Assembly: GCA_964658305.1 (NCBI GenBank)
Contig: OZ210885.1
Coordinates: 9,672,001 to 9,736,000, forward strand
Direction: 5' to 3'
DNA from: Leptogorgia sarmentosa
Taxonomy: Eukaryota
DNA length: 64,000 nucleotides
Part shown: piece by piece, positions 6,801 to 52,469 of the stretch
Layout: each line of letters starts with the position of its first letter
Numbering within the stretch: the stretch's first letter is position 1
Translations under genes and position numbers: made by a program
The notes under the pieces: model-generated
Database searches by the model: none
Seen by the model: the letters and a program-made list of their open reading frames with translations, nothing else
What the model was told of the DNA's origin: nothing

Positions 6801-9800
6801 TTCTACGAGATGATAAAACTATCACCTCATAGAAATCTCGAGCTCGTAAACTAATTGTTAAATATAATCACTAACAAACAGAATAGGTTTCGTTACTTAT
6901 ATTATGCGTGCTACTCAAAGCGATTACTGGAAGTCAGTTTTTAAAGATGTAGATAGAGCATAAAAAGTTAGTTAATACGTTCCAGATTAGTTTTTACGTT
7001 TTATTTTCCAAAATATACGTACACTGATCATGAGCAATAATATGACTGGACAAAGCTTCTGTAATGCATAAATAAACCAATAGCGGCCATATTGGTCTGA
7101 ATAAGTTTCCTCCAATTGATCGATTTCACTCATTTTAGTATTTCATCTCATTACAAATTTTCTAACTTCAAAATTATTGACTGAATTGAAAAGGATGATA
7201 AATTCAGTACTTCGAGATCACTGGATTAAATCAAAGGGCTCGAACAGCAAGTTTTGCCATTTCATGAAAAGAAGTCGCGCAAAAGCCCCAGAAAGCCATC
7301 TTAATGAACAACATTTACAGTTGTACTGCTTTGCATTACGAGCGACCGACTTATTGAGATATTTTACACCCTTTATTTAAAAAGTTGTCGTGTTTCAACG
7401 CATAACTCGAATAGAAATGGATCGAGTTTATGGTGAATTGAAAAGGACATCGTCTTGCACCCAGTCCCTCCTTGCGCGAAGGAGATAACCAACTTTGAAA
7501 CGAGTTCAACATGGCTAGAAATATGCGACATGCAGTATTACGCAATGGGCATTCGGACTTTCAAAATGCTCGTAAATTTATAGTATGCAGCAACGCAAAA
7601 TAGTATGTTTTCTTACATGGGAAGTATAAACATGGTAAATCGACTTGTAGCGAATCGAAAAAGCAAAATATTGTGATATTTAGAAGCCGATAAACCTTGT
7701 CCCCGAGCGATTCAAACGTATCCATGGATTGTAGCGTATTAGCCGCCATTAATCATCAATTCTAATATACTTCACTGAAAGAGAGCGGTGTTTTAGGATA
7801 CATGAAATACAAATTCCAACATGCGAAGCTTGATTTGTCAAGATGGGGTTTCGGCGGCTTCAACTAATATAAAACCTATAAAAGGTTACGTATCTTTCCC
7901 TTGTCCAGCTTTACGTTAATGTTCGATAGTTATGGATATTTCAAGCAAAGCGAAGCACTTTGCCGGGTGCAGCCGTTGAACAAAGACCTCAACGGGTAGT
8001 ACCCAATACTTCTCAATTGGTAGGTAGGTAGGTAGGTAGGTAAAACTTTATTTGACTACGCTTACCCCTACAGCAAAAGCTGGTTTCCAAGGGGGGCGTA
8101 GATTTAGATAGTTAAAAAAAAATACAATTAATTGATACAAATTATGGTCATGCATTACAATACTGTTGACAAACATTACAATACATTTACAAAAAACAGC
8201 TAATATATAATTGTTTACATGTTAAATTAATGTTAATAAAATTCTAGAGGCTGAATAATTCTAATAAGCTAATTAATTAATTAATTGGCCAGGTGACGTA
8301 TATATGAATTAAATGAAGCAAGAGAAAATTTGTTTCTTGCTTCATCTGGAAGGCTATTCCACAATTTTGCTCCTCTGTAGCTAAGACTTTTTTTAAGATA
8401 TTCAGTCTTAGGTTTGGGCAAAAAGAGTTTGGTGGAAGAGCCTCGCATATTGTAGTAATAAGAGGAAGGCGTCCCTTGAAAAAGATCGATTAGTCGTTTT
8501 GGCGCTAGTTCATGGGTTATTTTATACATAAGACTTGCTACGAAATGTGCTCTGCGCTCATTTAAAGGTTTCCATTTCAATTCGTCCAGAGCAAGTTCAG
8601 ATTGACCGTGTTCGTTTTTACGGCCAGTAATCACTCTAGCTGCCCTATTTTGTAGTTTCTGGAGTCGATCAGAAAGTGTAGCGCCAATGGTATCCCAAAC
8701 TTCGCAACAATAATCTAGGTGTGGTAGTATAAGTGCATTATAGGCACATATTAATGTATTGTGATCCACACAAGATTTTAGCTTTCTGATCGCCCCGATG
8801 CCGGATGAGATCTTCTTAGCAATTTTATCAATATGCTTATCCCATGATAGAAACTCGTCAATATGAACTCCAAGTGCTTTTGTTTCTTTGACCCTTTTAA
8901 TTGGTGTATCACCAACAAATACATTTGGAGCAGAAAGTAAATTATTTATGTTGTACCGTGATCCTATTAATAGGTACTCAGTTTTGACAAGATTAAGAGA
9001 TAATCTATTTGCAGAGAGCCATTGTTTGACGTTGGTAAGGTCATGGTTTATGGCCACCTCTACATCTTGAATTGATTTGCCAGATACAGTTAGAGCCGTG
9101 TCGTCGGCAAACATTCTTGTCGACGAGTACTCCAAACTGTTAGGCAGATCATTTACATAGATTAAGAATAAGAGTGGGCCAAGAATTGAGCCTTGGGGGA
9201 TTCCACATGTAACCAACTTCGTGCCCGAGAGAGCGCCATTAACGGAGCACATTTGGGTTCTATTCGTTAAATAGGATTCTAAAAGGTTTAATGATGGCTT
9301 CTGTAGGCCATAAAGATTAAGTTTCGCTAACAGGATATCATGATTTATGGTGTCGAACGCTTTTTGCAGGTCCAGAAAAAGAGCTATATTAAACAGACCA
9401 CGGTCCATATTAATGAACCATTCATTTGTACTATCTAAAAGAGCAGAGGCTGTAGAATGAAACTTCCTAAAACCAAATTGACGGGGAGACAACAACTCCT
9501 GTGTATCAAGATACTCTTGGAGTTGTTCACATAATACTTTTTCGAAAAGTTTACTTACAACAGGGAGGATAGAAATCGGGCGATAGTTGTTTAATTGGTT
9601 TCGTGGGCCGTTTTTAAATATGGGAGTGACTCTTGCGATTTTCCACTCAGAAGGAACAGTTGCACTTGTAATGGCCATGTTGAAAATTTTTGTCAATGAA
9701 TTTGTAACTACAGGAGCAGCAATGCGAATAATTTTAGCAGGGATTTTGTCGATTCCGGTAGATTTACGAGGATTTAGAGATAACAGAAGTCTGTATACAT

Positions 9801-12800
9801 TCGATTCAGACACTGTTTGAAAATTAAAACTACTAGATGTTGTCGTGATGTAATCTTTGAAATTTCTGTCACCAGAATCAATATTTTTGGCAATATCTGG
9901 GCCAATATTAGTGAAGTAATTATTAAAGCACTCTGCTAACTCTGCTGGATGTGAGATTTGTCCTCTCTGTGTTTCAAGACAGTTTATTTCTCTACTTTCT
10001 TGTTTACGGTTTAGGATTTTATTCACAGTTTTCCATGCTTTTTTGGGGTCATGTTTGACTTTCTCAAATTCTCCTTTATAGTATGCTGCTTTTGTTTCTC
10101 GTAATGCATCTGTTACGCGATTCCTAAGGGTTTTATATGCGTTCCAGTAGTTATCCGATTTATGTCTAATAGCAAGAGATTTCAGGCGATCGCGTTCGCG
10201 GATTTGTTTTTTAATAGTACTAGTGAGCCAAGGAACATTTGGTTTACTTTGGACTCTCTTTTCCCGAATTGGGGCGTGCCAGTCAAGAATATTTAAGAAA
10301 AGTGTTTTCCATGTGTTCCACATCTCGTCAACGCATAGGTTGCTATCTAACAATTCCCATTCCTGACCACGTAGGTCAGCTTGGAAACTCTCAGCGTTAA
10401 AATATTTTAAATTTCGAATTTCGACTTTCTTATGACTGTTCTGTTTGCGCTGGATATTTATTTTACGAACAACGAAAATCATGTAATGATCACTAATGGC
10501 AATCGGTATTACTTGTGATGTTATTAACCTAGTTGGAGTAGGAGTAAGACAGACGTCTAATAGGGAGGATGAGGTCGTGGTAACACGGGTGGGTGTGTTT
10601 ATCGTTTGCGATAATTGATATAATTCCATGATTGAATTTAAATTCTTTGTGGCATTGTTTGAGGTGTCAAGCATGTTAGCATTTAAGTCACCGAGTATAT
10701 AAAATTCCTTGTTTTCGTCATCTATTGTTTGTACCAATTGCTCAATTGCGGCAAAAGAGTCAACAGAAGCACTTGGAGGTCTGTAAATAGTGCCAACGAT
10801 AAATGGTGCGGTGGAAGGTTTACGGATCTCAACACATACAGCTTCAAGATTATCTCTAGTCAAGTCTTTTCGTTCTAAGTAGTTAAGGGAAGTTTTCACA
10901 AATAAGCAGACGCCTCCCCCTGTTCTAGAGCGATCGATCCTAATAAGATCATAATTACTTATGCACATAACCTGGTTATTTATAGTATTATCTAATCTTG
11001 TCTCATTTAATGCAAGAATATCGAGACATTCATCAGCTAATATGACCCTAATTTCGTCAATATGCTTTGGTAAACTGGTTATGTTAAGCATACCCATTTT
11101 AAAACCCTTAACATCAGGGAAATATGAGTTAGATTGAGCATACCTTACAGCACCTGGCCATGCCTTATTTCAATTACGACTAAGGTGATTACTATAATTT
11201 CTAGTAAGAGAGCTACTGCCCTTTCTGTTTAAATGTAGGCCACCTCTATTTAAACAAGTATAATCTAAGTTAGTATTGTCTATATAGGTCCATTTATTCA
11301 GGTCAGAAACCCGTTTAAGAATGTCATTAACAGTGTTTATTTTTTCCTGGATATTGGATTTATCTTTCCTGGTAATAATGCCCGATATACATACGTTAGT
11401 GCGTGGTAGACTTTCCTTTACTTGGGTTCCTAAGTTTAAGATGCCAGCAGCAACCACTTCTGCCGTCTTTGAGTTATCTTTGATATCGTTAGTGCCTACA
11501 TGCAATATTATCTCGTCGGGCTTTTTACGTAGTAATGGTTTTATGTAATCTTGCATATCTTCGACTTTGCTTCCTGAAAAGGACTTTACACTTACACGCT
11601 GATCATCGTTAGACAAGTTCCAGCCGTGAACATGCTGTAGAATTGAGTCCCCGGCAATGAAAACAAGTTTACCGGACTTATGATCATTTGAATTTGCGTT
11701 TGTTGTATTCTTTCTATTGTTGGTTTTAGCCTTGTCCTTAGGAATTTCAGCGGAGGTTCGGGTTGATTGACTTTCTTTATTCCTTTGTTTATCGTGTTTG
11801 TTCGGATCCGAGTTTGAATTTCTTTGTCTAATAGTCGAAGTGCTAGACTCAGTCAGGTCAGCTTCGTCATTAGCTTCTAAATCTTTATCTGAGTCATGAT
11901 CTGTGGACAGGAGACTAAACCTGTTTGGCGTTTTAATGACCTGTTCTTGGGCAATCATATCGGCAGACCTAGCAGTTTTAGTTTGGCATGCATGATTAGC
12001 AGAAGTATTATGTACATTAGCTCGTGCTTTATGCCCTGGAGTATGCCATGTATTATGTATTGCATCTCTATTATTTAATGATACAGATTTGCTGTCTTCT
12101 TGCAACAGCTTAAGGGCAGTGACTAGGCTCAATTTTTCATCTTCAATGTTTTTGATTTTCGTATTCAAGTCAGATACTATGTAAGAACAGTTGTTGAACC
12201 TTTCTCTCAATTCGTCGTTATCGCGCCTAAGTTGCGTGTTTTCATGTCTAAGCGTAGCATTATCATGTGCTAAGCTTGTTAGACAATATTCAGTCACTTT
12301 AGTGCCACCATTCAAATTCAGTTCTTTTAGCTGATCGAGCTGGTCGGCAAAGTTCTCCTTTATTTGTTGAAGCTCTGCTTTCGTTTCGACAATATGTTGG
12401 TTTAGTTTTAATTTAATCTCGCTTACCTCAGTAGGGAGTTCGTTACAGACTACCTGAGCGCTTGTTTCACATTCTATAGTTGTTGTATCACCACCGTCGT
12501 CCTTCGTGACACTTTGGGCTAAGGCGATGCTGTTGTGTTCTTTCGCACTTTCTTCCTCAGTAGAGAGTTCGTTATAGACTACCTGAGCGCTTGTTTCACC
12601 TTCGGTAGTTGTTATATCACCACCGTCCTTCGTAACACTTTGGGCTGAGGCGATGCTGTTGTGTTCTTTCACACTTTCTTCCTTCAGATATGAAATTACT
12701 CGTTCAGTCAGGTCTTTGCCTTTTTCTCCTTCAAAGGATATATTCATACTTTTGGTTTGCCATGTAACAGCCAGCAACACACTTTCAAATTTCCACGTTC

Positions 12801-15800
12801 CGCCGCTGGGAGATCGCCAGTTTGTATTTTCTGCTGTATCTTCGTCAATCTCCATTAATACAAGAGCTTTCAGGTCTTCTAGCGCCCCTGACCACTTCAG
12901 TTTGTTCTTCGCTAAGCGAAAGTTACCGTACAAAATATTCTTAACAGATGTCATTGTTGGAGCGGAAAAGCACACGTCCGTACACGTTGAATGTGTGTGT
13001 GGCCACACGGGTAATGCGAACACGGGTAATGCCCACGCTGGACTATCGTCTAAGATTGCTGGTCGGCGTTTCAGTATTACTGTTGATATAGTTATATTAG
13101 TGTTAGATATAAACCATTTTTCTATATACTAAGAATTTCCTTAATCCCAACCCAAGCCCTAGAATCCTAACCCTGACCATTGTGGTCAGAATAATATTGA
13201 GGAAAAAAAGTTTTCATCACTAACGCTGAAAAAATGTGTCGAACTGGGGCTTGAACTATAGAACTGCAACGCACGCACCGCGTGTTTTACCACTTGAGCT
13301 AAATCGAGCTCGCTGCTCACAGTAGGTTATAGGGCACGTATGGCGAGGGAAGTAATTAGTATGCAAGGAGGGCGAGTGCCTTAGCGCCGGAAATAATTAG
13401 TATGTAAAGAGTAATTAGTAACGTAACCGCGGCATGTGTTCCAGATACGCGTCCGTGTTATAAAAGTAAACTTGTATGCATATAGAAAGGGTAGAATTTT
13501 TGGTAAAAGAAATGTAATGTGCGACTAAAAGTTTAAAAGATGAGGGTTAGTTGAATAAATGTCAAATAGTAAAGTAAATATGTATTGCGCCGGGCGGTAA
13601 TTAGCTGGCAGAAGAATAGCGAGTAATTAGTATTAGTCTATTATGACCGCAATAACCCAGGGAATAATGAATGAGACTTTATGTTTTTGTAAAAAGTTTA
13701 TTAATCGTAAAAATATTGCTCATGTACTTTTACAAGTCATATAGAGAATTTTAGTTTATGTGATGTGCTACGAAACCTAATATTTAATGGTCTTCATCAT
13801 CGCTGTCCTCTGTAAAGATGTAATCTTTTAACAGGTTTTTAATCAGAAATTTTCTCTTATCAACCGCTGCTTGAATAGCTTCTTCGGGATCAAAATTATC
13901 GTCGTTCACAAAGGCATCTTTTGTTTGCATTATTTTCTTATGCACAGGGTCATTCTTTAGTTGTTTCATCCACGAAAGACGATTCATATAGATACTTTCC
14001 AACTCATTTTGGAGCTTAGGCAGGAATTCGGAGTAAGCTTTTTGTCCAGCGGATTGCTCATCCAAGCCACTATGTATCAAATTCGTCTTCATTTCCTTAA
14101 AAGCCGTTTTATACTTTTGCATTGTTTCTTCTACCATTGGCATCCAAGGATCATTTTCTTCCTCCTCAGTTTCGTCGTCTGTTGTCACCGGACTTTCAGA
14201 ACTATGAGTTGAAGCAGTCGAAAAATCGCCTTCCGATTCCGTTGTCTGACTGTCTGTTTCTGACATTTCACTCTCTTGATCCTTTAATGGACAGTACATG
14301 TTTTCGTGCCGACGTAGATTGAAACGTCGATTAAATGCTTTCCCGCAGAATTTGCAGCTCATTGCGCTAGCAAGGACTGTGTAAAAATGCCTTGTTATTG
14401 AGCACTACCGCACTTTTATTTGAGCATATGAGCATGTGCTCATGTGGGAATGAGCATATGAGCATGCGCTCATGTGGGAATGAGCAATTTCGAGCATCGC
14501 TCACAAATGCTCAAAACTGCTCATGAGCACATGCTCATAAGACCCGATGGCCCGATTCATGGTGGCATGCACTACCCATTCTCAGCATGCAAACCCAAAG
14601 GGTCCCAAACAATATTCAAATATAAATGACTATGCTCTATTTAATAACAGCGATGATTGTAATTTGACAAATTTGTAGAATATGTCCAAAGAATTGCATC
14701 GTTTGGGATCCTTTGGATTTGCATGCTGAGAATGGGTAGTGCATGCCACCATGAATCGGACCATCGGGTCTTATGAGCATGTGCTCATGAGCAGTTTTGA
14801 GCACTTGTGAGCGATGCTCATAAGGCCCGATTCATGGTGGGCCTTATAGGGCTTTATAGGGCCAGAGCGGGCCAAATAAAATATCTTTCACATGCAAACG
14901 ATGAACCAATACTATTAGGAACTCGCATAGTTAACATGAGTCGTACACGTAGAAACTGTCCTGTTTTTGGCTGTGGTAGTACGAATCTTGCAAGGCTAGC
15001 TAATCATCTCGCTCAAATACATGATATGAATACGGAAGAACGCAGAGAATGGTTAAAGTGGAGCAAAATCGGGATTTGTGTACCTCGACAGAATGAAGAA
15101 CCAAAGGAACTTTATATGGAGAAAAGTGCCGAAAAACTAATAAAACGGCAGGAAGAAATGGAAAGAAAATTGAATATTTACTTACAAGCCGCCAAATTAA
15201 AGAAAAGGCCAGAGCAGCAACAAGAACATTCCAGCTCAGGAAAAGACAAAGATAAATGGCTAATATATTAACTGGTATACTGGAGTATGAGACAGCGCCT
15301 TTATTACTTGCTGAGAAGAAACGATGTGTAGTCAAAGTTTTACCACGATGAATCGGGCCATCGGGCCTTATGAGCATGTGCTCATGAGCAGTTTTGAGCA
15401 TTTGTGAGCGATGCTCGAAATTGCTCATTCCCACATGAGCACATGCTCATATGCTCATTCCCACATGAGCACATGCTCATATGCTCAAATAAAAGTGCGG
15501 TAGTGCTCAATAACAAGGCATTTTTACACAGTCCTTGCTAGCTGAATGAGCTGAAAATTCTGCGGGAAAGCATTTAATCGAGGTTTCAATCTACGTCGAC
15601 ACGAAAACATGTACTGTCCATTAAAGGATCAAGAGAGTGAAATGTCAGAAACAGACAGTCAGACAACGGAATCGGAAGGGGATTTTTCGACTGCTTCAAC
15701 TCATAGTTCTGAAAGTCCGGTGACAACAGACGACGAAACTGAGGAGGAAGAAAATGATCCTTGGATGCCAATGGTAGAAGAAACAATGCAAAAGTATAAA

Positions 15801-18800
15801 ACGGCTTTTAAGGAAATGGAGACGAATTTGATACATAGTGGCTTGGATGAGCAATCCTCTGGACAAAAAGCTTACTCCGAATTCCTGCCTAAGCTCCAAA
15901 ATGAGTTGGAAAGTATTTATATGAATCGTCTTTCGTGGATGAAACAACTAAAGAATGACCCAGTGCATAAGAAAATAATGCAAACAAAAGATGCCTTTGT
16001 GAACGACGATAATTTTGATCCCGAAGAAGCTATTCAAGCAGCGGTTGATAAGAGAAAATTTCTGATTAAAAAACTGTTAAAAGATTACATCTTTACAGAG
16101 GACAGCGATGATGAAGACCATTAAATATTAGGTTTCGTAGCACATCATATAAACTAAAATTCTCTATATGACTTGTAAAAGTACATGAGCAATATTTTTA
16201 CGATTAATAAACTTTTTACAAAAACGTAAAGTCTCATTCATTATTCCCTGGGTTATTGGGGTCATAATAGACTAATACTAATTACTCGCTATTCTTCTGC
16301 CAGCTAATTACCGCCCGGCGCAATACATATTTACTTTACTATTTGACATTTATTCAACTAACCCTCATCTTTTAAACTTTTAGTCGCACATTACATTTCT
16401 TTTACCAAAAATTCTACCCTTTCTATATGCATACAAGTTTACTTTTATAACACGGACGCGTATCTGGAACACATGCCGCGGTTACGTTACTAATTACTCT
16501 TTACATACTAATTATTTCCGGCGCTAAGGCACTCGCCCTCCTTGCATACTAATTACTTCCCTCGCCATACGTGCCCTATAACCTACTGCTCACCACTCTG
16601 GCCTGGCTAAATGCATATGATTATAGACCCGGGCAATCACTGTCCATAATTTACCAGGCCAGGCTACTTAGACGATTGTCCAGCGTGGGCATTACCCATG
16701 TTCTCATTTGAGAAATATCGGGTACTACCCGTTAAGGTCTTTGTTTAACGGGTGTTCTAAGATACAGTACCAACTGCGACGTTAGGAATTAGGTTTATGA
16801 GTTTGGAATAAGAAATATAATTTCCATCACTCTAACACTTTTTTCGTAACATAATCTTGGTAATGATTTTGTTCAATTTGTGTCTTCATATTTTATGTAT
16901 GCATTTAACAGTTTAACTGCATGTATACAACCGCGTGAATAAAGCTACTGCAGAAAGTTTGACTGGTTTGCTTGAGTTCAGAAGTCTATTGCAATTTTCG
17001 TTATACGAATAATGAAACGGCCATGCAAATTGTGGAAAATTCAGAAAGGGCAATTTACTTGTTAGCAAATATTTCAAGTTTCAACCGTTGTTAAAATGTT
17101 CTATTAAGTTAAAATATCTTCAACTTCAAAATATTTAAGTACTATTCGCGTCAGAGTTTTAACGGGTTGTTTTAGGAAATTCAACAAAGAGCTACAGTCT
17201 TGCTCACTATCTAAACCATAGAAACAGATTTAACGTTTCGATGAAACGTCCTTCCTCGAGAATTGGTGTGTTCACTAATGTATAGTTATTCAGTGGATAA
17301 CGCAATCTTACATGTGAACAACCATCCCGTTACAGGAACATTATAGATTGTTAATGCATAAGACTTCCTCCACTACACGAGGGGGAGGTGGTTGAAAATC
17401 GATTTCTTACACCAGTTGACAGGTATTACTATTTACGCATGCGTTGCCCACAATGAATTTTTCCACGATTCTTGCCCCATCTAGTCATCGATTATATACA
17501 GGATAATCTCGAGCCTGATATCAATTGGACTATATCAAATGTCATTTATACGTAACTATAGATACCGATCTTGAACAATATATATCTTGCGTCGCATCAG
17601 GAATAGGTAGAGTCGTACATGACAGAACTTCAGCATTCTGTAAGTTGTTGCTGGGTCTTCCAGCAAGACAAAATAGGTAGTAAGTATTTTTCCCGTATAT
17701 AGATGACAAATTTGGTGGGGATTTTAGTAATGGGATATTTTACGATTGGGTTAATCTGGTTCCAGATTATCTAACTACAATAAAGTTGTATTTATAGTAC
17801 TCAGTTGCATGTGTTGGTAATGGCTTTATTAACAGGCAGCAAAGAGTCTACTCACTACCTAAATAATTTAAACAGATTTTACGTTTCGAGCGAAGGCCCT
17901 TCGCTGGGATCGAATGTTGTGTTAAACTAATTCCTGACGAGGGCCCTTTTGCTGGAAACGTCAAATCCGTTTGTATCCCTTATAGGTATTGAGTAGACCT
18001 TTATTTGTTGTCGAGTTGCCATCTGTTACCTACACTGGTCACACATTCATATTTCAATTATTATCTATCATGGGTTATGTGTACGTTGACCTGAAACCGT
18101 CATCATATAGCTCTGAATGAAGTTGATGCATAGTTTGTCTTAAATCTTGCATGAGAATCCATTCCATAAAAACATGGTAAATTAGTAACTTACTGAATCT
18201 GTCGAAATTTAAAGCTGTTTATGAAATTGAAAGTCAATGCTTCAATGCTCGTATCCATATTATACTGATATACAATTTTCCTAGACTATTTTTAAAATTA
18301 AAATAATAACCTACTTCAAAACGGTCATTCTCATGTTTTCTTATATGTATTATATGTAAATGTACATTTCTTTCGGTTCCGGTTTAATTAAAATATGTCA
18401 GTACGAAGTCCTGGAATGGATTAAATGTGCAGTTTCAGGTTTCATAACAAAGCACAAAACGCGGATGTGGTGCAGTTTAAGGCAGAGTTTCCAGTCCATG
18501 CGCCTTCGATTTTCAAATATACAAATTTTCTTTAATTTTTAGAACACATCTGATATAACATCAGAAAATCAAAGTTATAGTTTATGCCAATTAACCGAAA
18601 TCTGCGTATTACATATACTGACACCTGCACGCTGATGATTTCCCGTGTTTTCTTCATGAATTATTAATTAATGCGTTTGACAAGTATATGTAGCCACGTT
18701 TTGTAAAAATTGTATACATTCCTAATAATGAATACGCCGAGTCGAAACGTGGAACAAACAATTCAAAAAATTTCTTGTGTTTGGATGTTTCTATTGTTTT

Positions 18801-33800: not shown

Positions 33801-36800
33801 AAAAGGCGAATTATTCCAAAAAATGAAAGCTTGCGCGGCGTTTTGAAGGGCTTAAACTCAAGCATTTTTTCTGAAATTTTGAACGGAAATACAAAACCTG
33901 ACAAAGTTTCCGTCCATCAACTAAAAATTGCTTTTGAGCCTTTAAATTTCGTGCGCAAGACATTTTCTATCTGTTGGAAAAAAACACTCCCCCCGGGTTT
34001 TTGAAAATTTAAATTACAAAATTTTTTCGTTTATTCTACATTATAAGTACTCAACCAATCCACATAAACCGAAAACTTTGTACCTCGAGCCCCTTTGCGA
34101 AGTTGAAAATCTCTTCAGTTTTTTTTTATACACCCTGTAGTGTGGTAACAATCCAAAACAATTGCCATTCATCTACATGCAAGCGTACTTGGGCAGTGCT
34201 GGTAGCCGTTTCGACATATCGAGCAAAGACCCTTAGTCGTTAATTAGTACTGGGGTCAGGGGAAAACACAAGGGTTTTTATATTAGTGAATATATGGAAA
34301 CCAAGTAAAAACCAATCGGATGGATTTGATACACCAGTTTTCGAAAGCCTTCGCCAGATAAGTGGAATCTTATCGTATCGTTTAGCCAGTGAAACAAAAT
34401 TTATCAAAAAAAGAAAGTAATTACCTAACAGCTGTGGAGCAATAGAATGCAAATTCTCCTCGATAACCGCAAAAGACCGCATCAACGACGTCTTGAGCAG
34501 TTCGATTTCTCTCGAGGGCTGGTCCAGAAAACGAAAATCTGACATTAAGGAAGGGAGATCGAATTGATTCACCTTTTCATAAAGCCAGTTAAAATTGAAG
34601 AACAGTTTATGTAGTTCATCAAATTGCTCGGAGGAGTGGAGGTGATAGGTCAGGTACTTGAAATAATAATCCTTGTTGCCTTCAAATTTTCCCCAATCAC
34701 CGTTCTCGGAATGACCACGAAGTGCCTTCACGAACAATCTTTGGACAGAACCTAGTTTGCCTCCTACTTTTGCACGTGCAAAACCCAAAAGGAGATCGTG
34801 GAGACGGTAGCTCTTCTTTCCATGGATATCAGATCCTGAAAATTATCGTTATAAGGCGAATTTCAAATGAGTGCAAAATTTTGGTTAGCGATCGCTTTCT
34901 TTTGAAATGCTTGCGACCAGCCAAAGTTAATGAGAATTGCTGACTGTTTGTATTTCAAAATAAAGCGTTCGCTAAAAGTCGATCGCGCGCCATTTCGCCC
35001 TGAATTAAATTCTGCCATTAGAGAACATAGTCACGTATGGTGATTCGAAACGTTTTTGTACAGGACACTAGAGCAGTCTGGGACTGCAGTCAGGCTATAG
35101 TACAATAATTTTTCCGATTTAGAATACCCCAGGGCGATGGAAGTATTTTCCATTCAATTCGATTTGTTGCTCATCTAGGAATGTCAGAGGAAAACACTGA
35201 AAATATTGGGCAAATGAACGGGCAAATTTGGCTTGCCCACATATGAGTCAACATATGATTATAGCTGGAAAATAATTTCCTTAGGCTTGCTTGACGTTGA
35301 TTTGATTAAATGTTCAGCCTAACAACTTGTTGACAGTTAATATACAGGTTTCGCAAAAGGAGCTGTAGTAAAAAAGCATTTGAAAATTTTCTCGTCGTAT
35401 TCGTGCATTTCATTTGATTGCATGAAGCAACAGACAAATTTAGCGATCACAAAAGTTTAAAAATAAGACAACAAGCAAAAAGCTATCATCACAGTTGGAA
35501 ATAGCGTGCTGAAATTAGCATGAATACAAAGTTTGAAGAATAAAAATTATAAAATGAGGAAATTGTGCCCAAGCAAATTTAGCACAGTTAACATACAATT
35601 TATAAAGTAGAAGTGATTTAACACCCATTTTCGTCTGAAATGGATATAATTTTGTTTGCTCTGATACAATAGTACACAAAATGAACTGTGTCTGGCAATG
35701 ATATTCCCATTTTATGATATTTCTTCTTTAAACTTTGAAGTTATAGTAATTTTTCCACGCTGTTTCCAACTGTGGCGAAGATTTTTGTCTATTATCATGC
35801 ACCGTGCCTTCATTTACCTTTTTGAATCATCGACTTCTTTTCGAGCTCATCAAGTATACGTCTTGCTTCACGACGGCTGCACGAAGTTCTTCCGGCTACT
35901 TTGGAAGACCAAAACATCTCAAGAATGTCTGATGGTACATCCGTATCTTCTGGAAATAAAGCGAAATCTAGAAACTTTTCTCGTATTTCTTCGTTCAAAT
36001 GTTGAAAGCTGGCGTTAATGGCTGTTAAGACGTTGTCGTAAGGATAAGCGTTGGTGGGATATATTGAACGTAATTTTACCAAGTCTGCTGTTTTGAGGTC
36101 ATTTAAAACGTCTTCCCAGTCTTGTTCGTCGCGAGTGTCGGCTAAACTTGAACCCACTAGGGACAGAGCTAGCGGTAGATCGCCGCAGTGGTTTAACAGT
36201 TCCTTTATAATTTGCCGCATGTTTGAACTAAACTTAGACTGCTCGTCCTCGGTGACTCGGGCAGTTTGATACAAGAGCTTGTAAGAATCATCCCGTTTTA
36301 AAAATTTGAGTTTATACAAAGCAGAACCTTGTAAACCGCGGACAACTTCAGAATTCCTTGTAGTTATCAATAATTGGCATTTTCCAGAGAGATGATCAAA
36401 TACAGAAGCGTGGTTTACACTCCAAACATCATCAAGAATCACCAAGCAATCTTTATCACTCTGCAATACATGGAAAACTACTTTATCGTCGTATGTGTTG
36501 ATACTTTTCGACTTATTTATTGGGGGTAAAATTAATCGCGTCGGAGCAGAAGGAAAGTTATCATGACTTCTGAGTCAGAAGGACACCAACTCTCATGACA
36601 GAAACATGGTAAAAACATAGGGATCATTGAAAGTTTATATGAAAGTAAATTAGCACTAGGGATCTTTTTTGAGAACGGTTTCCTTGTTATATCGCGGCAA
36701 TGAGTATTACATAAACCCTGGGAAAGGTGCACATACCGTATTTGCTTTTATCCAGCCTTGCGCGGCACGGATATCAGAGAACGTCATTTCTCCACCAATA

Positions 36801-39800
36801 TCTTTTATGAGGAGGTTAATCAGCGCTAGACAGTCTGGAGTTTCTCCAATGTCAAGCCATATTACCTGACGAGATTCTTTGGCAGCCCAAGCAACGGCCA
36901 GAGCTAAGATGGTCTTTCCCAGACCCCCCATACCACGGATACCAACGACGTCGCTCCCACGATTCCCAACCACACCAACTCTACTATTTCCATTCGCAAG
37001 TAACCTTAATATGTCGTTCACTTCTGACGGTCTCTCCACCATGTCACGAGGTAGACATCGCAAACCATGGGCAACTAACATATAAAATAAGAATTGATGC
37101 TGTATTAGTAGACCCACTTTTGTGTGCGTAACGAATGGACAATTAATTACATATATAACTGGCACACCCATTTGCTAACGCTGTATCGTGTCAATCTACT
37201 GGGCGTCCCAAACAAATGAAAACGTTACCATTGAAAATAATCTATTGTTAGAATTACAATGCCTCCGTGCCTCGCACTATAAGTTTAACCCAAGGGTGTA
37301 CAAATTGTTGAAAATTTCTTAATAGCTATCGAAATTGTTGTTATAGATTATTTTCAATGGTTGCGTTTTATCAGGGGGGGCTGTATGTATTTAAAAGGGG
37401 TTGCGTTTAAAAATGCACATTCACTGTTATTGTCTCAAACTGGCTACTTTTTCCCATAATCATATAGAGGGTAAATTTAATAAAACCTGATGAATGACTA
37501 ATGAAGAGGACATTTTTTCCTCATTCAGGGCAAAATTACTTCACCCTGATTGGCTTAATTTTCAGAATTTTTCACGTATGGCTTCCTCGCATTATTTGTC
37601 GTGTGTGAAATCGTCAAATTAAAATAGTTTAATAAATATTAAAGAAAATTCTGTTATCTGCCTGTGCCAAAACACTGCACGCGAAGTCTCTTTGATTGCA
37701 TACACGCCATTTTCCCAACTTTTTGCGTTGTACACCTGTGCCAATTTAGAAACGTTAAACTGGAGAATATTACGCAAACTATCTTACTGATGGACCAAAT
37801 ATTGACTGAATGCTAAAATACTAAACGTCTAACTGATATACCTACGTAACTGCTTAATTCATACATAAAATTAAGTGGCTTCTCAACAGATCCGAATATA
37901 CTTCTACAATTACTCTCGCTGGCTAATTTGTGGCGCGTAATCACATTGTAATATTTTTTTCAACAATTTGATACCTTTTGGTGGCGAATAATTTCTTTGT
38001 CTCTCATGATGACTCTCCGTCTTGTTGACATTTTGCTGTAAACATTTAATTTCATTGAAAGTACTCTCAATTTTGTCCGCATGGCTTTGAAGCTCCTTAG
38101 AATGATGTTCAAATTTTGCCGAGTGTTGTTCAAGTTCCTTTGAGTGTTCTCCAAGTTCCTTTGACTGATGATCAAATTTTTCCGAGTGTTGTTCCAGTTC
38201 CTTCGAGTGTTGTTCAAGTTCCTTTGAATGTTCTCCAAGTTCCTTCGACTGATGGACAAGTTTTTCCGAGTTTTTCGCGACACATGTTTCAACTTTTTCA
38301 ATTCTGCTGACCAGTTTTGAATGGATGTTGTCAAGTTTCTCTACCACGGCATTCATCTGCAGAGATACATGTAAAGAGCTATAAATATTTCAATTTATAT
38401 TAAATATTCATGAATAAACATTAAAGATTAAAATATCTGCAGGGATACAAATGATGCTTTATTCACAGAACAATGCATGTATGAATGTGCGATATTTTCT
38501 GGTCAGCATTAGAAATGAAATTATATTTCCAAGCATCATGCATTATTCTTTTTAGAAATATTGCCCCATTGTCCCACAATGTGCTCCAAAAGTGCGACCA
38601 AAGTAGCCGGAGGAACTTCGTGCAGCCGTCGTGAAAGAAGACGTATACTTGATGAGCTCGAAAAGAAGTCGATGATTCATAAAGGTAAATGAAGGCAGGG
38701 TGCATGATAATAGACACTGTTAAGGCAGCGATATTTAGCTATCACATCTTAAATTGCCATAAAAAGAAGCAGAAAGTTCTATAATTAAAAAATTTATATG
38801 TTTTTGGAACTTATTGATCGATTATAAAGCAAATTTAACAGTTACGGAATAAAAATAAATATAAAACGGGCCATATGCCGACAAAATTTACATTCGCGTT
38901 AGCATAAAAAAGGATTTCAAATTTCTCTTTAAAAAGCATAATTCAAGTTTCGTTATACTTCATTTCGGATTCATATTCGAAAGGCATGGTATAAGCGTTG
39001 CCGCCATTAGATTTTCGTTCTTTAAAATGCTGTAGGCCTAATTCAGACGTCGTACATTTCATGTGCCAAATCTAATGTTAACGAGCTAAGTTCTTTGTTT
39101 GAGTTCAATTGGATTAGGCTTGGCACATCAAAAGTTCGACGTCCCAAGTTTCAACTGGCCTTATTCCACAGACACCAAAGAATATGCTCAGGTTGGATTC
39201 GTATTGAATAAAACAATGTTCCTGTAGTTATAAAGCAGTAGCATGCAAAATACTGCATGGCATAATTTCAACAAATAAACTACATGACCTCATGCATAAA
39301 CACGTCACAAGGTGTGATGCATACAGACAATTCTGGTTTTATAGTAGTAAAAGCAGGAATCTATGAAAACAAATGAACGTTTCCGTCCCGACCACCAGAA
39401 CCAGAACCGTGCACGACAACCTTTCGTGACGTCATTATACATAAGGTCTATTGAAATTTGACATGCAGGTCTGCTAGTTTTTAAACTTTTCAGAAAATTG
39501 TAGTTCAACGTTGAAACATCAATAGCAATTTTGCAAGGAAAAGTTATTGTTATCTACCAATTGTTTTGCTTAATGGGGTGTCCTAGGGCTAGTTTTTTCC
39601 TAAAAGAGAATTTATATTAGTATTTATCAGTAATTGATATGTAGTGTGTTTTATTTATCGCTCCACGCTTCGTTCTAAGTATTCTGTTGCAAACGTCTCC
39701 CCCAAAAAAGTATGCACATGTTTGACTTGTAACGTTTAACGGGTAAAGCAAAACTCATAAAAACAGCATTATCCTAAAAAAGCACAGATTGCGTTCCCAC

Positions 39801-47230: not shown

Positions 47231-50200
47231 CAGGGGCGTATCCAGGATTTTTCGTACGTTAGTCAAAAAAATTTTCCGAACATCCAGGGGGGTGAGTAAT
47301 TTTGACAAGCGGGGGGGGGGGGTAGTTGTTAAACGAGAAGCGACTGTTTCGCCCAATTTCAGGGCTCATCAGCATGCCTAGGTAACGCACAAAACCATGG
47401 TTAATGGTATTTTGTGGTACAGACATGGACAGCCCTTTTCTAAAGGCCTAAGCTGCTGGTTTTAAGGCGCCAGGACTCGCCTTCACACCTTTGCTGCGGA
47501 GCAAAGGAGTTTGGTTGGACATGGGGACTATATGGGATATTTTTTAGGTGTGAAACCGCTCTATTTTCACACCATCCCAGTCGATTCCAACCCTTTACCC
47601 CCCTTCCCGGGGCCCGTCCTACCTAATCTAAACCTAAGTCCTAACTTGAAATACATGCAAAGCTTATTGTAATCTACATTCAAAATTGTTATTTAATCGC
47701 ATGTTGACGTTGTATATAGGAATATTTTGTCGTTGCATATAAATGATCAAGATCAATGGTTGAAACTGATCATAGAATTGATCACGAGAATAACTTTTTC
47801 AATGTCGCGTATTTTTGACGAAATGTGTTCAAAACCCAAATATTTTTGGCGTTCCTCTCGAAATCGAATTTTGTTATGATTATCTCAACGAAACAGTTGG
47901 CTGTCTTTGGTTTTGAGAAAGTAGTATAAAAATTAAGACCGTTAATGTTCGCCGTATAACCAGCTCGACCTGATTGAAGCCTTTGTTACAGCAATGAAAG
48001 CAAGATTTTTACCAAGCTTTTTAAGTTTACCGACTGAGAAACCTCGAAATTTATATTTAATCATTGGGTCATTCATACGTGTATACTGTATATAATAAGT
48101 TATTGGTTATGATTGGTTACTAAACACCGCCACGCGCCAATTTATAGAACGTTAGGGAAAGGCGACAAAAAAATCAGGTAAATTTCAACCTTGTGTTTCC
48201 AACGGCAAATTTATCGATTACTTTTTCGATATCTGGGACGATCTCCTGATGAATCTTCATTAGGGCTAGACCATTTAACCGTTCTTCAACCATTGTGCTA
48301 CGTTGGTAATTTTTAAGTGTTCTTAATGCCGAAATGGTTCTTTCACACTCACAAGAAGTGATGGGAAGAGTTCCCAAAATTCGAAGAATGACTTTGATGT
48401 TCTCAAAACCATCAAAGGTTATAGCTTTCAAAGTTGTGGCAATGTTGTCAGGAAGGGGACCTTCACATGTCTCCCAATAATTTGTCCAAAGTGACAGTTC
48501 TGCATCTAAAGCTAACGGGAAAGGCAAATCGTCAATATAAAAATTGGTAACAATTTTGAAATCATTCCGCCAATCTAGCCCTTTCTCTTTCAAAGTCATC
48601 ATCTTGGTCGGCACAACGCTTAACCCTTTATAAACGTTAACGCTGTCGGTGTCAAATCTGTGTTGTAAAGCTAAATTAATATGGTATACTAAAGGAATAG
48701 TTATGGTACGCTTGTAATACTCGGAGATTGACTTACATGGAGGATTGGATCTAGTCGTTTGTCTCCCTACAGTCCGTGGTTTGCTTTCTTCTACCTCGAC
48801 CTTCTCTGCTAAATTCAACGTCTCGGCATACCAAATATCGTGGTAAGAATCGATAGAATTTCTAAAGTTAGTGAAATCATTTTTAGTGGTGTTAATTAAA
48901 TGAATACCATCCATAATATCAATACTCTTTCCCTGTAGTAATAACGTTACTGGGAGAAGGCGATCAAGAACATTCTGAGAAACGACCAAAGCTGCAATAA
49001 ACTCAAACTTTGTGACAAGATCAAAAAAATTAGAGGCATCAGTGACAAGGTTTGGCCTATAGCTCCCTTCAACATTATCTCTCATCTCTCTGAGAGTATC
49101 ATATAAAGGGACAAACAGCTCAATGAATGTATCCAAACCAGCAATACGCTCCACCCATCTAGTCCGACAAACGTCTACCAGCCGTCTCTTCTGACTTTCC
49201 CTTTCAGAATAGTTGCGGACATTTTCTTCAAAAGGTATGTTGCGTGTCTGGGAGATATTAATAAAATTTGATACATCTTTAACATGTTTCATCATAGTAT
49301 TTACCTCAACAACAGTCAACGAATCACATACAGCTAAGTTGAGTCGATGACTATAACAATGTGTGTAAAGGGCTTTTTCGTTCAGACGTAAAATATTAGC
49401 TGACAAACCATTGATATGCCCAGCAACAGCACCTGCACCGTCGTAACCTTGCCCCCGACAGTCATCAATAGATAGAGTTAACTCATTAAGGGCATCTAAA
49501 ATCAACTTGGCGAGTTGCTCGCCACTTAGTCCCCACCTACACTGTAGGAAAGCAATAAATTCTTCCCTAATATTCAAATCAACGTCTACAAAACGTAAGA
49601 CGAGAGACATTTGTTCATTGTGAGAGGAGTCTGCAGCCTCATCTGCAATTATAGAATAAAACTTACTAGCCTTAACATCTTGAATGATCTGGTCACTGAT
49701 CACTTGACCACAACACCTAATAATCTTATTTTGGCTAGTCTTAGATATATAACTCTTATTTTTACCACAATTTTTCAGATGGTTCTCCAAAACTTTGTCC
49801 CCAGCCCGGACTCTAAAATTAAGAGATTCTATAAAATTGCCAACTCCCCCCGTAGAGTAACTGCCAGCCTCCGGATGGTATTTAGCATCATCACGATGAC
49901 CACGTAATGGTAAACCAAGACGGCCACAAAAAACTACCGAGTCTAGAATTGAGGCGAGTTTGTTTCTATTTTCTTTAACTTCTTGTTTGATATTGCTATC
50001 CAAAATGACCTCTATAGGCTGTGCTTTTCCTGACATTTGGGAAAGTAAAGATGTCAATATAGGAAAGGTACAAGCATGCAGTCCCATTTCCCCACTCAAA
50101 CCCTGTCCAGCATGATTTTTTAAAGTATATGCTGCACCACTCCAACGACGCAGAGGCTCAGAAAATAAATTATGGATTTTGCTAGATTTACCAGGAAAAC

Positions 50201-52469
50201 GATCTCCAAACAAAACACATGACAAGCAGAATGCCCCATCTTTTGATGGTGAATAACAGAGCCAGGAATATAATTCCAGCCAACTGTACCTAAAGCTTCT
50301 GCCATTTGTCTTAGGAAAAAAATAATTCTTGTCAGGCCTAAAGACATTTTTAATAAGGTTGCAAATTTCAGAAGAGTTCATTCCCTTGACCATATCTCGG
50401 AACATTGCAACATCAAAATTGGTGCTAGATGATTTTACCTGTTTTGCAATAGGTGTTTCACCTGTTCTAGAAACAGTGCTTTTTATCTCTGTGGAAGTGC
50501 TAGGCTTATTTGGATCTAAATGTAATATGTTGTGGGCTTTGGGCTTAAAAACAGACTTCTCAGCTACATTAAAAAAATTAGTAATATTTGTGGCTTTTTT
50601 GGGAGGAATTGCAGATACTTTTTGCTTCTTGGTACATGTTTGGGAAGTGGCAGCTACAGGTTTACGTTTTAGCTGCTGTTTATGAAAAAGAAGAGGGACA
50701 AAATGATTTGACTGGAATGTTCTTCCAGAAGCTACAGTACCTTCATAACAAAAAAGAATGTGAAGATTATCTATACTTTTCTTTGGACTTAAAGTTAAAC
50801 GTGGTTGAATCATGCGATTAAACAACAATTTAAATCTTGGCTCCCCACAGTCAGGATAATAGGTAAATATATTCCTATTTAAAACAGAAGCAAGACCCAA
50901 TATGCAAAGAAAGGATGACCACTTTTTCTCATTGCAATTAATAATGGCCTCTTGTCTAACCAGGTTGGCTTTAATGCAACGTGTATCCAAACACTCCTGA
51001 GTGACACACATTGGTAAAATATTATTAACGTTGCTGAAATACTCAGCATGGTCATTGACAACAGAAGAGAAGCAGGGGTGCTCAGAATAAAATTCCGCAT
51101 TGGTGAAAAGCTCTATTGATGTCAAAACTCTTAATGACTGCATTAGACTATTGTTACCTACTTGTACCAAGGACACAGAACTATACAAGCAGTTTCCAGT
51201 AACATCAGATCTAAAATATAAAATAATATATCAGCTGTGATTCCAAAATATTCACTAATGAAGTATTAAAACAGCTGCCTTGTATCTCTAATACATAGCC
51301 CGGAAAAACAATGAGTAAATGGTGTCTGGTTACACTGAATCAGTCTGAATGGCACTGGGCAGTGGGCAACATCTTGTTGCATCTGCCATTATACATGCTG
51401 TAGAGGTCATATTACATAAAGCTTTGTCACATAGCCATGTGCTTCAGGGCCTGTAGTTTACACTAGATAAATATTATAGTAAATATATATCAAAGTCAAT
51501 AGTTAAGTAAACGAGGCAGAAACAAAGTATAAACAAACTGAAATGCCTGTATAAAGTCGCTGTATTTATGTAAATTATGATATGATATTATGTAAATTTC
51601 ATCTTATTATAATGCGCGTGGCGCACTGACGCGGTGACGCCGAATTCATATCATAGCATGTGCGTAAGACATGTATTAATCGACTGCTATAATGCTATTT
51701 TAGTTAGAATAATAAAGTATATTTACCTTAAGGCCGTGCAGAACTTTTTCTTTTCTTGAGCATGCTTCGGAATGTATGATTCTGCTCCAAAATTCCGTGC
51801 GAGAAAGAAGCTATTGCTATACACAGCACCCAACAATTCATCAATAGTACGCTTCGGTACGTCATTGACTTGCTTTTTCATATCAGCTTCAATATCTTTA
51901 AGATATTGCTGATCGTTCTTCTCTAAGGCAGCCTTTACAGTTTCGTAAATGCTGGCTGACATTGTCGAACAAAAATTTTCCGATTTCACTTCGAATACGT
52001 TAACCTTTGCAGTTTGTAGCTTGCGCGGCCAAGTAGCGATCAGAAAGGACCTGACCTTTCTGTGCGGTGCGTGCATACTATTAGCAATGAGCGGCTTGAT
52101 CGATCAAAAAAATTCAGCCAATAGAAATTGAGAACTTTTTTGAATTAGCCAATTGAAAAGCCGGTATTTCTGCCCCTGATCGCTCCATCGATCAGGACTC
52201 CCCACAGATCGCGCAAAATTTGAGCACAGCCAATCAGATGGCTAGAATCGCCCTAAATCGCGCAAAACTCATGCGTAAGACCGCTTTTCTGCTCGTTCAT
52301 GTTCGAAGGCTAAACTACTGGATGATATTTCAGAACTGGACTGTTGAACATTTTAGGCAAGACACTGCACGAAGTTTGATAACTGGATTGATAATTTAAC
52401 TCATTAATTTTATGGCCGATTTTTACCTCAGTCGCGTGATCGATCTGATCACCCCTGGATCCGCCCCTG
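47231..52469 (-). mobile_element. Intact autonomous hAT transposon, 5239 bp
   Basis: TIRs CAGGGGCGTATCCAGG and CCTGGATCCGCCCCTG (16 bp, 1 mismatch); exact 8-bp TSD GGCAGAAA at 47223-47230 and 52470-52477. Confidence 0.95.
48174..51962 (-). CDS. hAT transposase (THAP12/ZMYM1-like: TTF zinc finger, DUF4371, hAT dimerisation domain) with N-terminal OTU/vertnin-like domain; 2 exons, ~1090 aa
   Basis: Exon 1 51962-51727 (AG|GTAAAT), exon 2 51210-48174 (TTTTAG|A), phases match. Motifs WLCYS..DGAFCLSC, LPLRGH, IADEAADSS, GQGYDGA, HCYSHRLNL, TRW, CERTIS, RLNGLALM; N-terminal TGNCLYSSVS...LRV..IEL...NHFVPL. Confidence 0.93.

Follow-up and report, generated by a model that had tools for sequence, protein, structure and literature searches.

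A 3.3-kb mobile element with Polinton-like ends and two zinc-finger genes in Leptogorgia sarmentosa: a candidate non-autonomous derivative

Polintons/Mavericks are usually described as self-sufficient virus-like elements of 15-25 kb, and the question raised by the locus considered here is how a unit of 3.3 kb, with ends of that type and small zinc-finger proteins as its sole gene products, could be copied and inserted into a genome. The locus lies in a stretch of 64,000 nucleotides of Leptogorgia sarmentosa (Eukaryota; NCBI GenBank assembly GCA_964658305.1, contig OZ210885.1, positions 9,672,001 to 9,736,000, forward strand), hereafter the window, whose first letter is position 1 of all coordinates. 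An initial annotation, made from the letters alone, had read there a miniature Polinton/Maverick-like element. The element is real, multicopy and mobile, and with moderate confidence we consider it a Polinton/Maverick derivative that is non-autonomous and would rely on a helper, acting in trans, for copying and integration. Its boundaries and arms are the following:

13321-16587, whole element, 3,267 bp, with AGTAGG...CCTACT termini and GCTCAC abutting both sides
13315-13320, no strand, left copy of the target-site duplication GCTCAC, read directly, single in uninterrupted copies of the host repeat
16588-16593, no strand, right copy of the target-site duplication GCTCAC, read directly
13321-14565, plus strand, left terminal inverted repeat, 1,245 nt, starting with AGTAGG, 98.6% identical to the right arm
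15343-16587, plus strand, right terminal inverted repeat, 1,245 nt, ending with CCTACT, inverted match to the left arm

Both termini were read directly (AGTAGG at 13321-13326, CCTACT at 16582-16587), and the arms, with 777 nt in between, differ at 17 places over 1,245 nt; the termini, the exact 6-bp duplication and the near-identical repeats of about 1,245 bp first described for this locus all hold. The terminal 28-mer occurs twice in the window, both times at the element ends (0 expected), and BLAST of the element against the window gave no further copy. As the inverted repeat is one base longer at each side (C/G), a 4-bp or an 8-bp duplication is also readable, the former with CAG..CTG ends and the latter with unequal ends. 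Both were rejected because the homology of other copies stops at 13321, which sets the terminus at AG and the duplication at 6 bp; the base preceding 13321 was T, T and A, not C, in three run-level consensus lines of loose ends, whose agreement was low (0.46-0.58).

Evidence on other copies comes from contigs of four public sequencing runs (labelled X1, X2, X6 and X8) aligned to 13000-16900 and 13296-13620; in the best-matching public runs 0.36 of the sampled words recurred, and no run of RNA is recorded among them. Contig depth is not usable as copy number, and a copy count based on it was rejected. Over the flanks (13000-13320 and 16588-16798) contig depth was far above that of the element, which therefore sits inside a high-copy repeat. 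Host-repeat contigs connecting 13312 to 16586, and thereby omitting 3,273 bases, i.e., 3,267 plus 6, were present in X2 (n = 3), X6 (n = 1) and X8 (n = 2), a second register of this type of joint was present in X2 (n = 1) and X6 (n = 1), eight letters fitting either side of the joint, and seven X2 contigs passed from 13320 directly into the right-flank sequence. Since uninterrupted copies of the host repeat omit exactly 3,267 + 6 bases, the boundaries of the element are fixed. Contigs matching from exactly 13321, with outward sequence unlike the flank in the window, were found in X2 (n = 8), X6 (n = 4) and X8 (n = 3); their outward sequences are varied, A+T-rich and mutually unlike (agreement 0.46, 0.58 and 0.57, respectively). 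The family is thus present at several different sites, and the independent mobility proposed by the initial annotation stands as far as these unlike flanks go, no same-size copies with duplications of their own having been read in the contigs. In one X2 contig, ...AACCTACT adjoins 16159, the end of one copy lying within another.

Loose ends behind 13365, 13404 and 13587 mark other sequence families that share just the terminal 45-270 bp with the element, a pattern that fits a partnership with a helper without naming the partner. The terminal 45-120 bp (13340-13440 and its mirror stretch) were two- to five-fold deeper than the remaining arm in the public contigs, and some contigs held additional tandem copies of a unit of about 20 bp bearing TAATTAG near the terminus. 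This excess depth and these extra units suggest that the ends are shared by further elements, either shorter or of another kind.

The structure was compared with that of known kinds of elements (PMC8097293, PMC4196379, PMC5499653, PMC11414722, PMC7031253 and PMC8502044 are cited for excerpts of their text). Vertebrate Mavericks are described as leaving duplications of 6 bp and as having inverted ends that measure 46-1,447 bp and start from one of two end motifs, (AGT)2//(ACT)2 or (AG)3//(CT)3 (PMC8097293); a terminal tandem repeat of 1-3 bp is described as serving protein-primed synthesis (PMC4196379), and Polintons are defined by the protein-primed polymerase B and rve integrase that they encode (PMC5499653). 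In our element GCTCAC stands on both sides of the 3,267 + 6 bases skipped in uninterrupted copies, the inverted ends measure 1,245 nt (100-1,000 bp in Polintons/Mavericks, 46-1,447 bp in the vertebrate ones; PMC8097293) and AGTAGG//CCTACT agrees with (AGT)2, a motif defined on vertebrate elements, at 5/6 bases (PMC8097293). The structural case for a Polinton-type element is strengthened because both the 6-bp duplication and the AG terminus are fixed by uninterrupted and other copies. The genes tell otherwise: no family of polymerase B, rve integrase, ATPase, protease or capsid matched any of the 44 open reading frames (ORFs) of at least 90 amino acids (aa) in the window, those of the element included, as the initial annotation had already noted for the polymerase, integrase, ATPase and capsid. 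Without a polymerase B or integrase gene, the element is a candidate non-autonomous derivative and not a Polinton proper, and a full set of structural features with the gene feature missing is as expected of such a derivative.

Other superfamilies agree less well with the ends. IS3EU/GingerRoot elements leave 6-bp duplications and have TA..TA, occasionally TG..CA, ends (PMC10045372), and were excluded by the AG..CT ends found here. Dada elements leave 6-7-bp duplications, have no inverted ends and insert only in small-RNA (tRNA or snRNA) genes (PMC3706591), and were excluded by the 1,245-nt inverted repeats and the varied, A+T-rich flanks of the other copies. Ginger1/Ginger2, with TGTNR ends and 4-bp duplications (PMC2836005), were excluded on both features. 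Among transposon superfamilies with 6-bp duplications, Polinton/Maverick alone appears to fit structurally.

Autonomous Polintons/Mavericks (polintoviruses, adintoviruses) have in common with the element the 6-bp duplication, the long inverted ends and AG...CT termini with an AGT-type repeat (PMC8097293, PMC4196379), but they are 12.7-24.6 kb long, against 3.27 kb here, and carry core genes where the element has two small zinc-finger proteins with no Polinton or viral relative found. Polinton_CE_TIR remnants of C. elegans also keep Polinton inverted ends (744 bp) without polymerase and integrase; compared by description only, they differ in being presented, in the excerpted account, as remnants or rearrangement products and not as two-ended units with a duplication and selected genes (PMC11414722). 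Giant-virus transpovirons, the nearest analogues in their way of working, are small linear replicons with inverted ends of 380-520 nt, dependent on the machinery of another element, and count a zinc-finger protein and its paralogue among their core genes, whereas they are about 7 kb long, encode a helicase and are episomal in amoebal giant-virus factories; integration with a 6-bp duplication is not described in that excerpt (PMC7031253), and the ORF1 protein model had no viral fold match. The "Oncoid" genes of adintoviruses resemble ORF1 and ORF2 in being small accessory ORFs near the genome end with metal-binding Cys motifs and acidic stretches, but they have LXCXE-type Rb-binding motifs and paired CXXC (PMC8502044), while neither ORF1 nor ORF2 has an LXCXE and ORF1 has a single C2HC. 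Phrase searches of the literature for non-autonomous Polintons/Mavericks returned just a remark on Tlr1, and the excerpted text of a paper on Polintons/Mavericks of Anolis reports no non-autonomous forms; entries for such forms may exist in Repbase.

What the element carries in place of the core genes is set out below, together with its repeats:

13784-14362, minus strand, left copy of ORF1, intact, 192 aa, transcribed toward the terminus; 425 relatives; ratio of non-synonymous to synonymous substitution rates (dN/dS) 0.22 against the related locus L002
15546-16124, plus strand, right copy of ORF1, broken by an in-frame stop at codon 3
14936-15271, plus strand, ORF2, 111 aa, with a basic N-terminus, a C-X4-C-X10-H-X4-H finger and a short helical tail; 111 relatives
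14400-14565, minus strand, upstream module of the left ORF1, with the 16-bp palindrome ATGAGCAnnTGCTCAT twice (14428, 14523) and then AAATAAAA, some 52 nt ahead of the ATG
13353-13630, plus strand, five subterminal TAATTAG motifs in one orientation, with a mirror set at 16278-16555
14492-14819, no strand, central palindrome of 328 bp, with arms at 14492-14613 and 14698-14819 (122 nt, 96%) and a loop at 14614-14697 (84 nt)
14746-15342, plus strand, 597-bp unit (module and ORF2) between 74-nt direct repeats, source of the asymmetry of the element

The element consists of three gene units, compact and free of introns, and a common upstream module with a 16-bp palindrome precedes each of them. All six perfect 16-bp ATGAGCAnnTGCTCAT palindromes of the window lie inside the element (0 expected), in three clusters, one ahead of each gene, and are followed by AAATAAAA at 52-60 nt before the ATG; upstream of ORF2 the palindrome stands at 14773 and AAATAAAA at 14875. 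An AATAAA occurs about 82 nt past both ORF1 copies (the left one at 13697-13702, minus strand). The motif ATGAGCA is found 25 times in the element against 4 in the other 60.7 kb of the window, and 10 of the 20 TAATTAG matches in the window fall in the two subterminal stretches, five within the first 310 bp of each arm. The 74-nt direct repeats (14746-14819 and 15343-15416, 95%, spacing 597) flank the 597-bp unit, and the element minus this unit is a palindrome around the 84-nt loop.

The initial annotation had placed a 192-codon C2H2 gene in each arm. An intact gene is present in the left arm only, the longest ORF of the right copy being of 171 codons from an inner Met. Nine of the 17 arm differences fall inside ORF1, four silent and five non-silent, the stop included (right vs. 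left copy), and they look like neutral decay since insertion. At the site of the stop every covering public contig (X2, 5; X6, 2; X8, 3) has another letter, and the stop is thus private to this copy. A finger is indeed present, but it is a C2HC variant, with ligands C-X2-C-X12-H-X4-C, and Pfam zf-C2H2 (PF00096) scored 22.7 bits over profile positions 2-21 of 23, below the cut-off of 25.2. The protein comprises this finger (residues 3-24), an acidic disordered linker and a helical C-terminal domain, and its AlphaFold2 model (predicted local distance difference test, pLDDT, 67) likewise shows a finger, a disordered acidic stretch at 32-69 and helices at 74-179.

Relatives of ORF1 are numerous. 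From 1.84 billion representatives its profile retrieved 1,282 clusters with E ≤ 0.001, of which 500 passed 1e-10 and 41 passed 1e-30, these being clusters at 50% identity and some of the weak matches possibly finger-only; among 469 candidates, 425 were relatives of similar length. Eleven residues are invariant in nine diverse members (W73, L121, K136, D138, T147, E161, A162, A166, R170, K171 and L173). The profile of the ORF1 family (A1) matched the Gfi-1 finger among PDB sequences at E = 0.0017, and profile searches of PDB sequences gave matches limited to generic fingers; the ESM Atlas returned generic C2H2 clusters with few common features and nothing else, and no relative was found in prokaryote genomes. 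None of the best 150 representatives was a fused or longer form, all being of at most 318 aa, and a search with residues 70-192 found no longer forms either, which is weak evidence. The helical C-terminal domain (105 residues) defines a large unnamed family without fold match.

The second zinc-finger ORF claimed for the core of about 780 bp is also there, ORF2 lying in the 777 nt between the arms. A 145-aa reading of it from the ATG at 14834 was not supported, most aligned relatives beginning at the inner Met (14936), and ORF2 matched no family in Pfam, zf-C2H2 included. Five short related loci, L001, L002 and L005 among them, were recovered from metagenome contigs. In L002 (1-1509) a paralogue of ORF2, ORF2 and ORF1 follow one another on one strand, each behind the repeated module, in the same gene order as the right half of the element; L005 (678-815) has three tandem modules, and the ATGAGCAnnTGCTCAT palindrome lies upstream of ORF1 in three of the five loci, with 63-87 nt from the end of the motif to the ATG. 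TAATTAGTA is absent from all five, and the terminus of the relatives was thus not recovered. Against L002, dN/dS was 0.22 for ORF1 (101 codons, dS 1.16) and 0.20 for ORF2 (111 codons, dS 0.75). Since both values are about 0.2, both proteins are selected in the lineage, i.e., under purifying selection between lineages while this copy decays. In two proteins (P0288 and P0307) an ORF2-type finger is followed by an acidic linker and a helical domain of the ORF1 type, and because they combine parts of both, ORF1 and ORF2 are modular relatives, members of one large unnamed family. The ORF1 family is carried on transposon-like cassettes and exchanges its DNA-binding finger.

If the element is a non-autonomous derivative of a Polinton/Maverick, the protein-primed polymerase and the integrase of a helper Polinton would act in trans on its ends, the terminal AGT-AG repeat could be used in slide-back priming, and the array of five TAATTAG may bind a replication or integration factor, a parallel being the auxiliary origin sites in adenovirus ends. 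Both zinc-finger proteins may be regulators that recognise ATGAGCAnnTGCTCAT palindromes, in the promoters of their own genes and perhaps in those of the helper. The 328-bp central palindrome suggests that the element could have originated when one end of an element was copied in fold-back fashion, one 597-bp cassette being then gained or lost by recombination between the repeated modules. Fold-back defective genomes of adenoviruses and other protein-primed replicons are short and consist of a large palindrome made by doubling one genome end; they retain the origin and depend on a helper for replication, although they are encapsidated by-products and not integrated heritable copies. The element would have, as we infer, the satellite or defective-interfering nature suggested for it at the outset. 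A more tentative and rather doubtful proposal is that a Polinton/adintovirus-like element has here a satellite with genes, inherited as the parasite of another parasite, which combines the replication and integration ends of the helper with regulators of its own. These regulators, from the large transposon-borne family with exchangeable finger, acidic linker and conserved helical domain, would bind the 16-bp palindrome, thereby activating their own genes and exploiting or dampening helper expression.

Several observations weigh against a helper-dependent Polinton derivative. No element combining these ends with a polymerase or integrase was seen, no genome-wide search for one having been made. 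Nor was a Polinton or virus protein related to either ORF found: profiles of ORF1 and ORF2 gave no relative of either in IMG/VR, and Foldseek of the ORF1 model against BFVD and PDB gave nothing at E ≤ 0.001. Position 6 of the end motif departs from (AGT)2 as defined in vertebrates. ORF1 is not always adjacent to an end in its relatives, L001 having a further module (998-1042) beyond a frameshifted ORF1. Depth in the public contigs was much lower over the loop and the 5' portion of ORF2 than over the arms, and the exact 3.27-kb form may therefore be rare. The duplication was read at this copy alone, the contigs being far shorter than the element, and the junction of this copy with its own flank was uncovered in the four runs (depth about 0 at 13296-13317), a gap that proves nothing. 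Finally, subterminal repeat arrays in one orientation are more familiar from cut-and-paste transposons.

The last point belongs to the main alternative, which we regard as unlikely, namely that the element is a cut-and-paste DNA transposon, likewise non-autonomous, from a superfamily that is unclassified or still undescribed; its DDE transposase would bind TAATTAG and make 6-bp duplications, the likeness of the ends to those of Polintons being coincidental. The five motifs of the same orientation that each arm has within 310 bp of its terminus would suit it, as would the terminal 45-270 bp common to otherwise divergent families, which is usual for shared transposase sites, and the lack of any Polinton gene among the 44 ORFs of the window; none of the checked superfamilies, however, combines a 6-bp duplication, AG..CT ends and long inverted repeats, and AGTAG agrees with 5/6 bases of the end motif that the excerpted vertebrate account gives for Mavericks. 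A self-sufficient element, in which one or both zinc-finger proteins perform excision and integration by a new mechanism, is very improbable. Purifying selection on both genes, their being the sole genes of the element and a C-terminal domain of ORF1 outside known families and folds speak for it, yet the predicted structure of ORF1, a finger with an acidic disordered linker and a helix bundle, bears no sign of a catalytic fold, the invariant residues from W73 to L173 are in our reading not a recognised catalytic set, ORF2 has 111 aa, and the searches above for longer or fused forms, of which that with residues 70-192 is weak evidence, came out empty. Hardly credible is, lastly, that the structure is no mobile element and arose through misassembly or through a local duplication in inverted orientation. 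Assembly errors can create near-perfect palindromes and the flank junction of this copy is the one left uncovered, but the exact 6-bp duplication stands within a repeat that is uninterrupted at that point in other copies, and in three runs many other flanks adjoin the termini. Moreover, the palindrome centre is bridged by independent contigs of X1 (191 nt, 14560-14751) and X6 (14594-14706), two runs with different organism labels, and the arms show 17 differences, unexpected from an artefactual duplication; bridging contigs and arm differences together argue against an artefact of assembly.

Should a Polinton derivative be confirmed, the retention of the ends and of two selected regulatory genes in a unit of 3.3 kb would mean that these elements, like viruses and giant viruses, have dependent satellites whose interests differ from theirs. 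It is because its kept genes are still under selection in the lineage that so small an element matters, and it offers a compact handle for locating an active helper in the host genome. The C-terminal domain of ORF1 is of separate interest, as it defines a large family with neither name nor fold match.

The element is inserted in a very high-copy, 276-bp repeat that resembles a short interspersed element (SINE; 13055-13320 and 16588-16597, minus strand), with box A/B-like motifs and a T-run at about 13230; "tRNA-like" would be a reading of the box-like motifs only, and neither ARAGORN nor Rfam identified a tRNA or any further RNA family, either across the window or where the element is inserted. 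This repeat is in turn nested in an outer one with 42-nt inverted arms (13013-13054 and 16667-16708), as other contigs connect 13052/13054 to 16598 with 4-6 other letters between. A CR1-like long interspersed element (LINE) occupies 8281-13128 on the minus strand, its 5' end about 190 bp from the element, and has a frame of 652 aa with a GDSL esterase domain (11170-13128) and, past one stop, one of 962 aa with endonuclease and reverse transcriptase (8281-11169); within the 5' part of its first ORF, at 12426-12683, are two tandem units of 126-129 bp, 87-92% identical. Exons of an APAF1/NLR-like gene extend over 3177-37174 on the minus strand, with NB-ARC at 35810-37174, the APAF1 helical domain at 34240-34842 and many WD40 exons, including those at 28543, 26055, 23419, 21638, 5622 and 3177. 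The LINE and the element lie between WD40 exons, in what would be an intron of this NB-ARC/APAF1-type gene. Farther along, at 48174-51230 (minus strand), an uninterrupted frame of 1,018 aa with DUF4371 and a hAT C-terminal dimerisation domain is possibly an intact hAT-type transposase or a domesticated copy.

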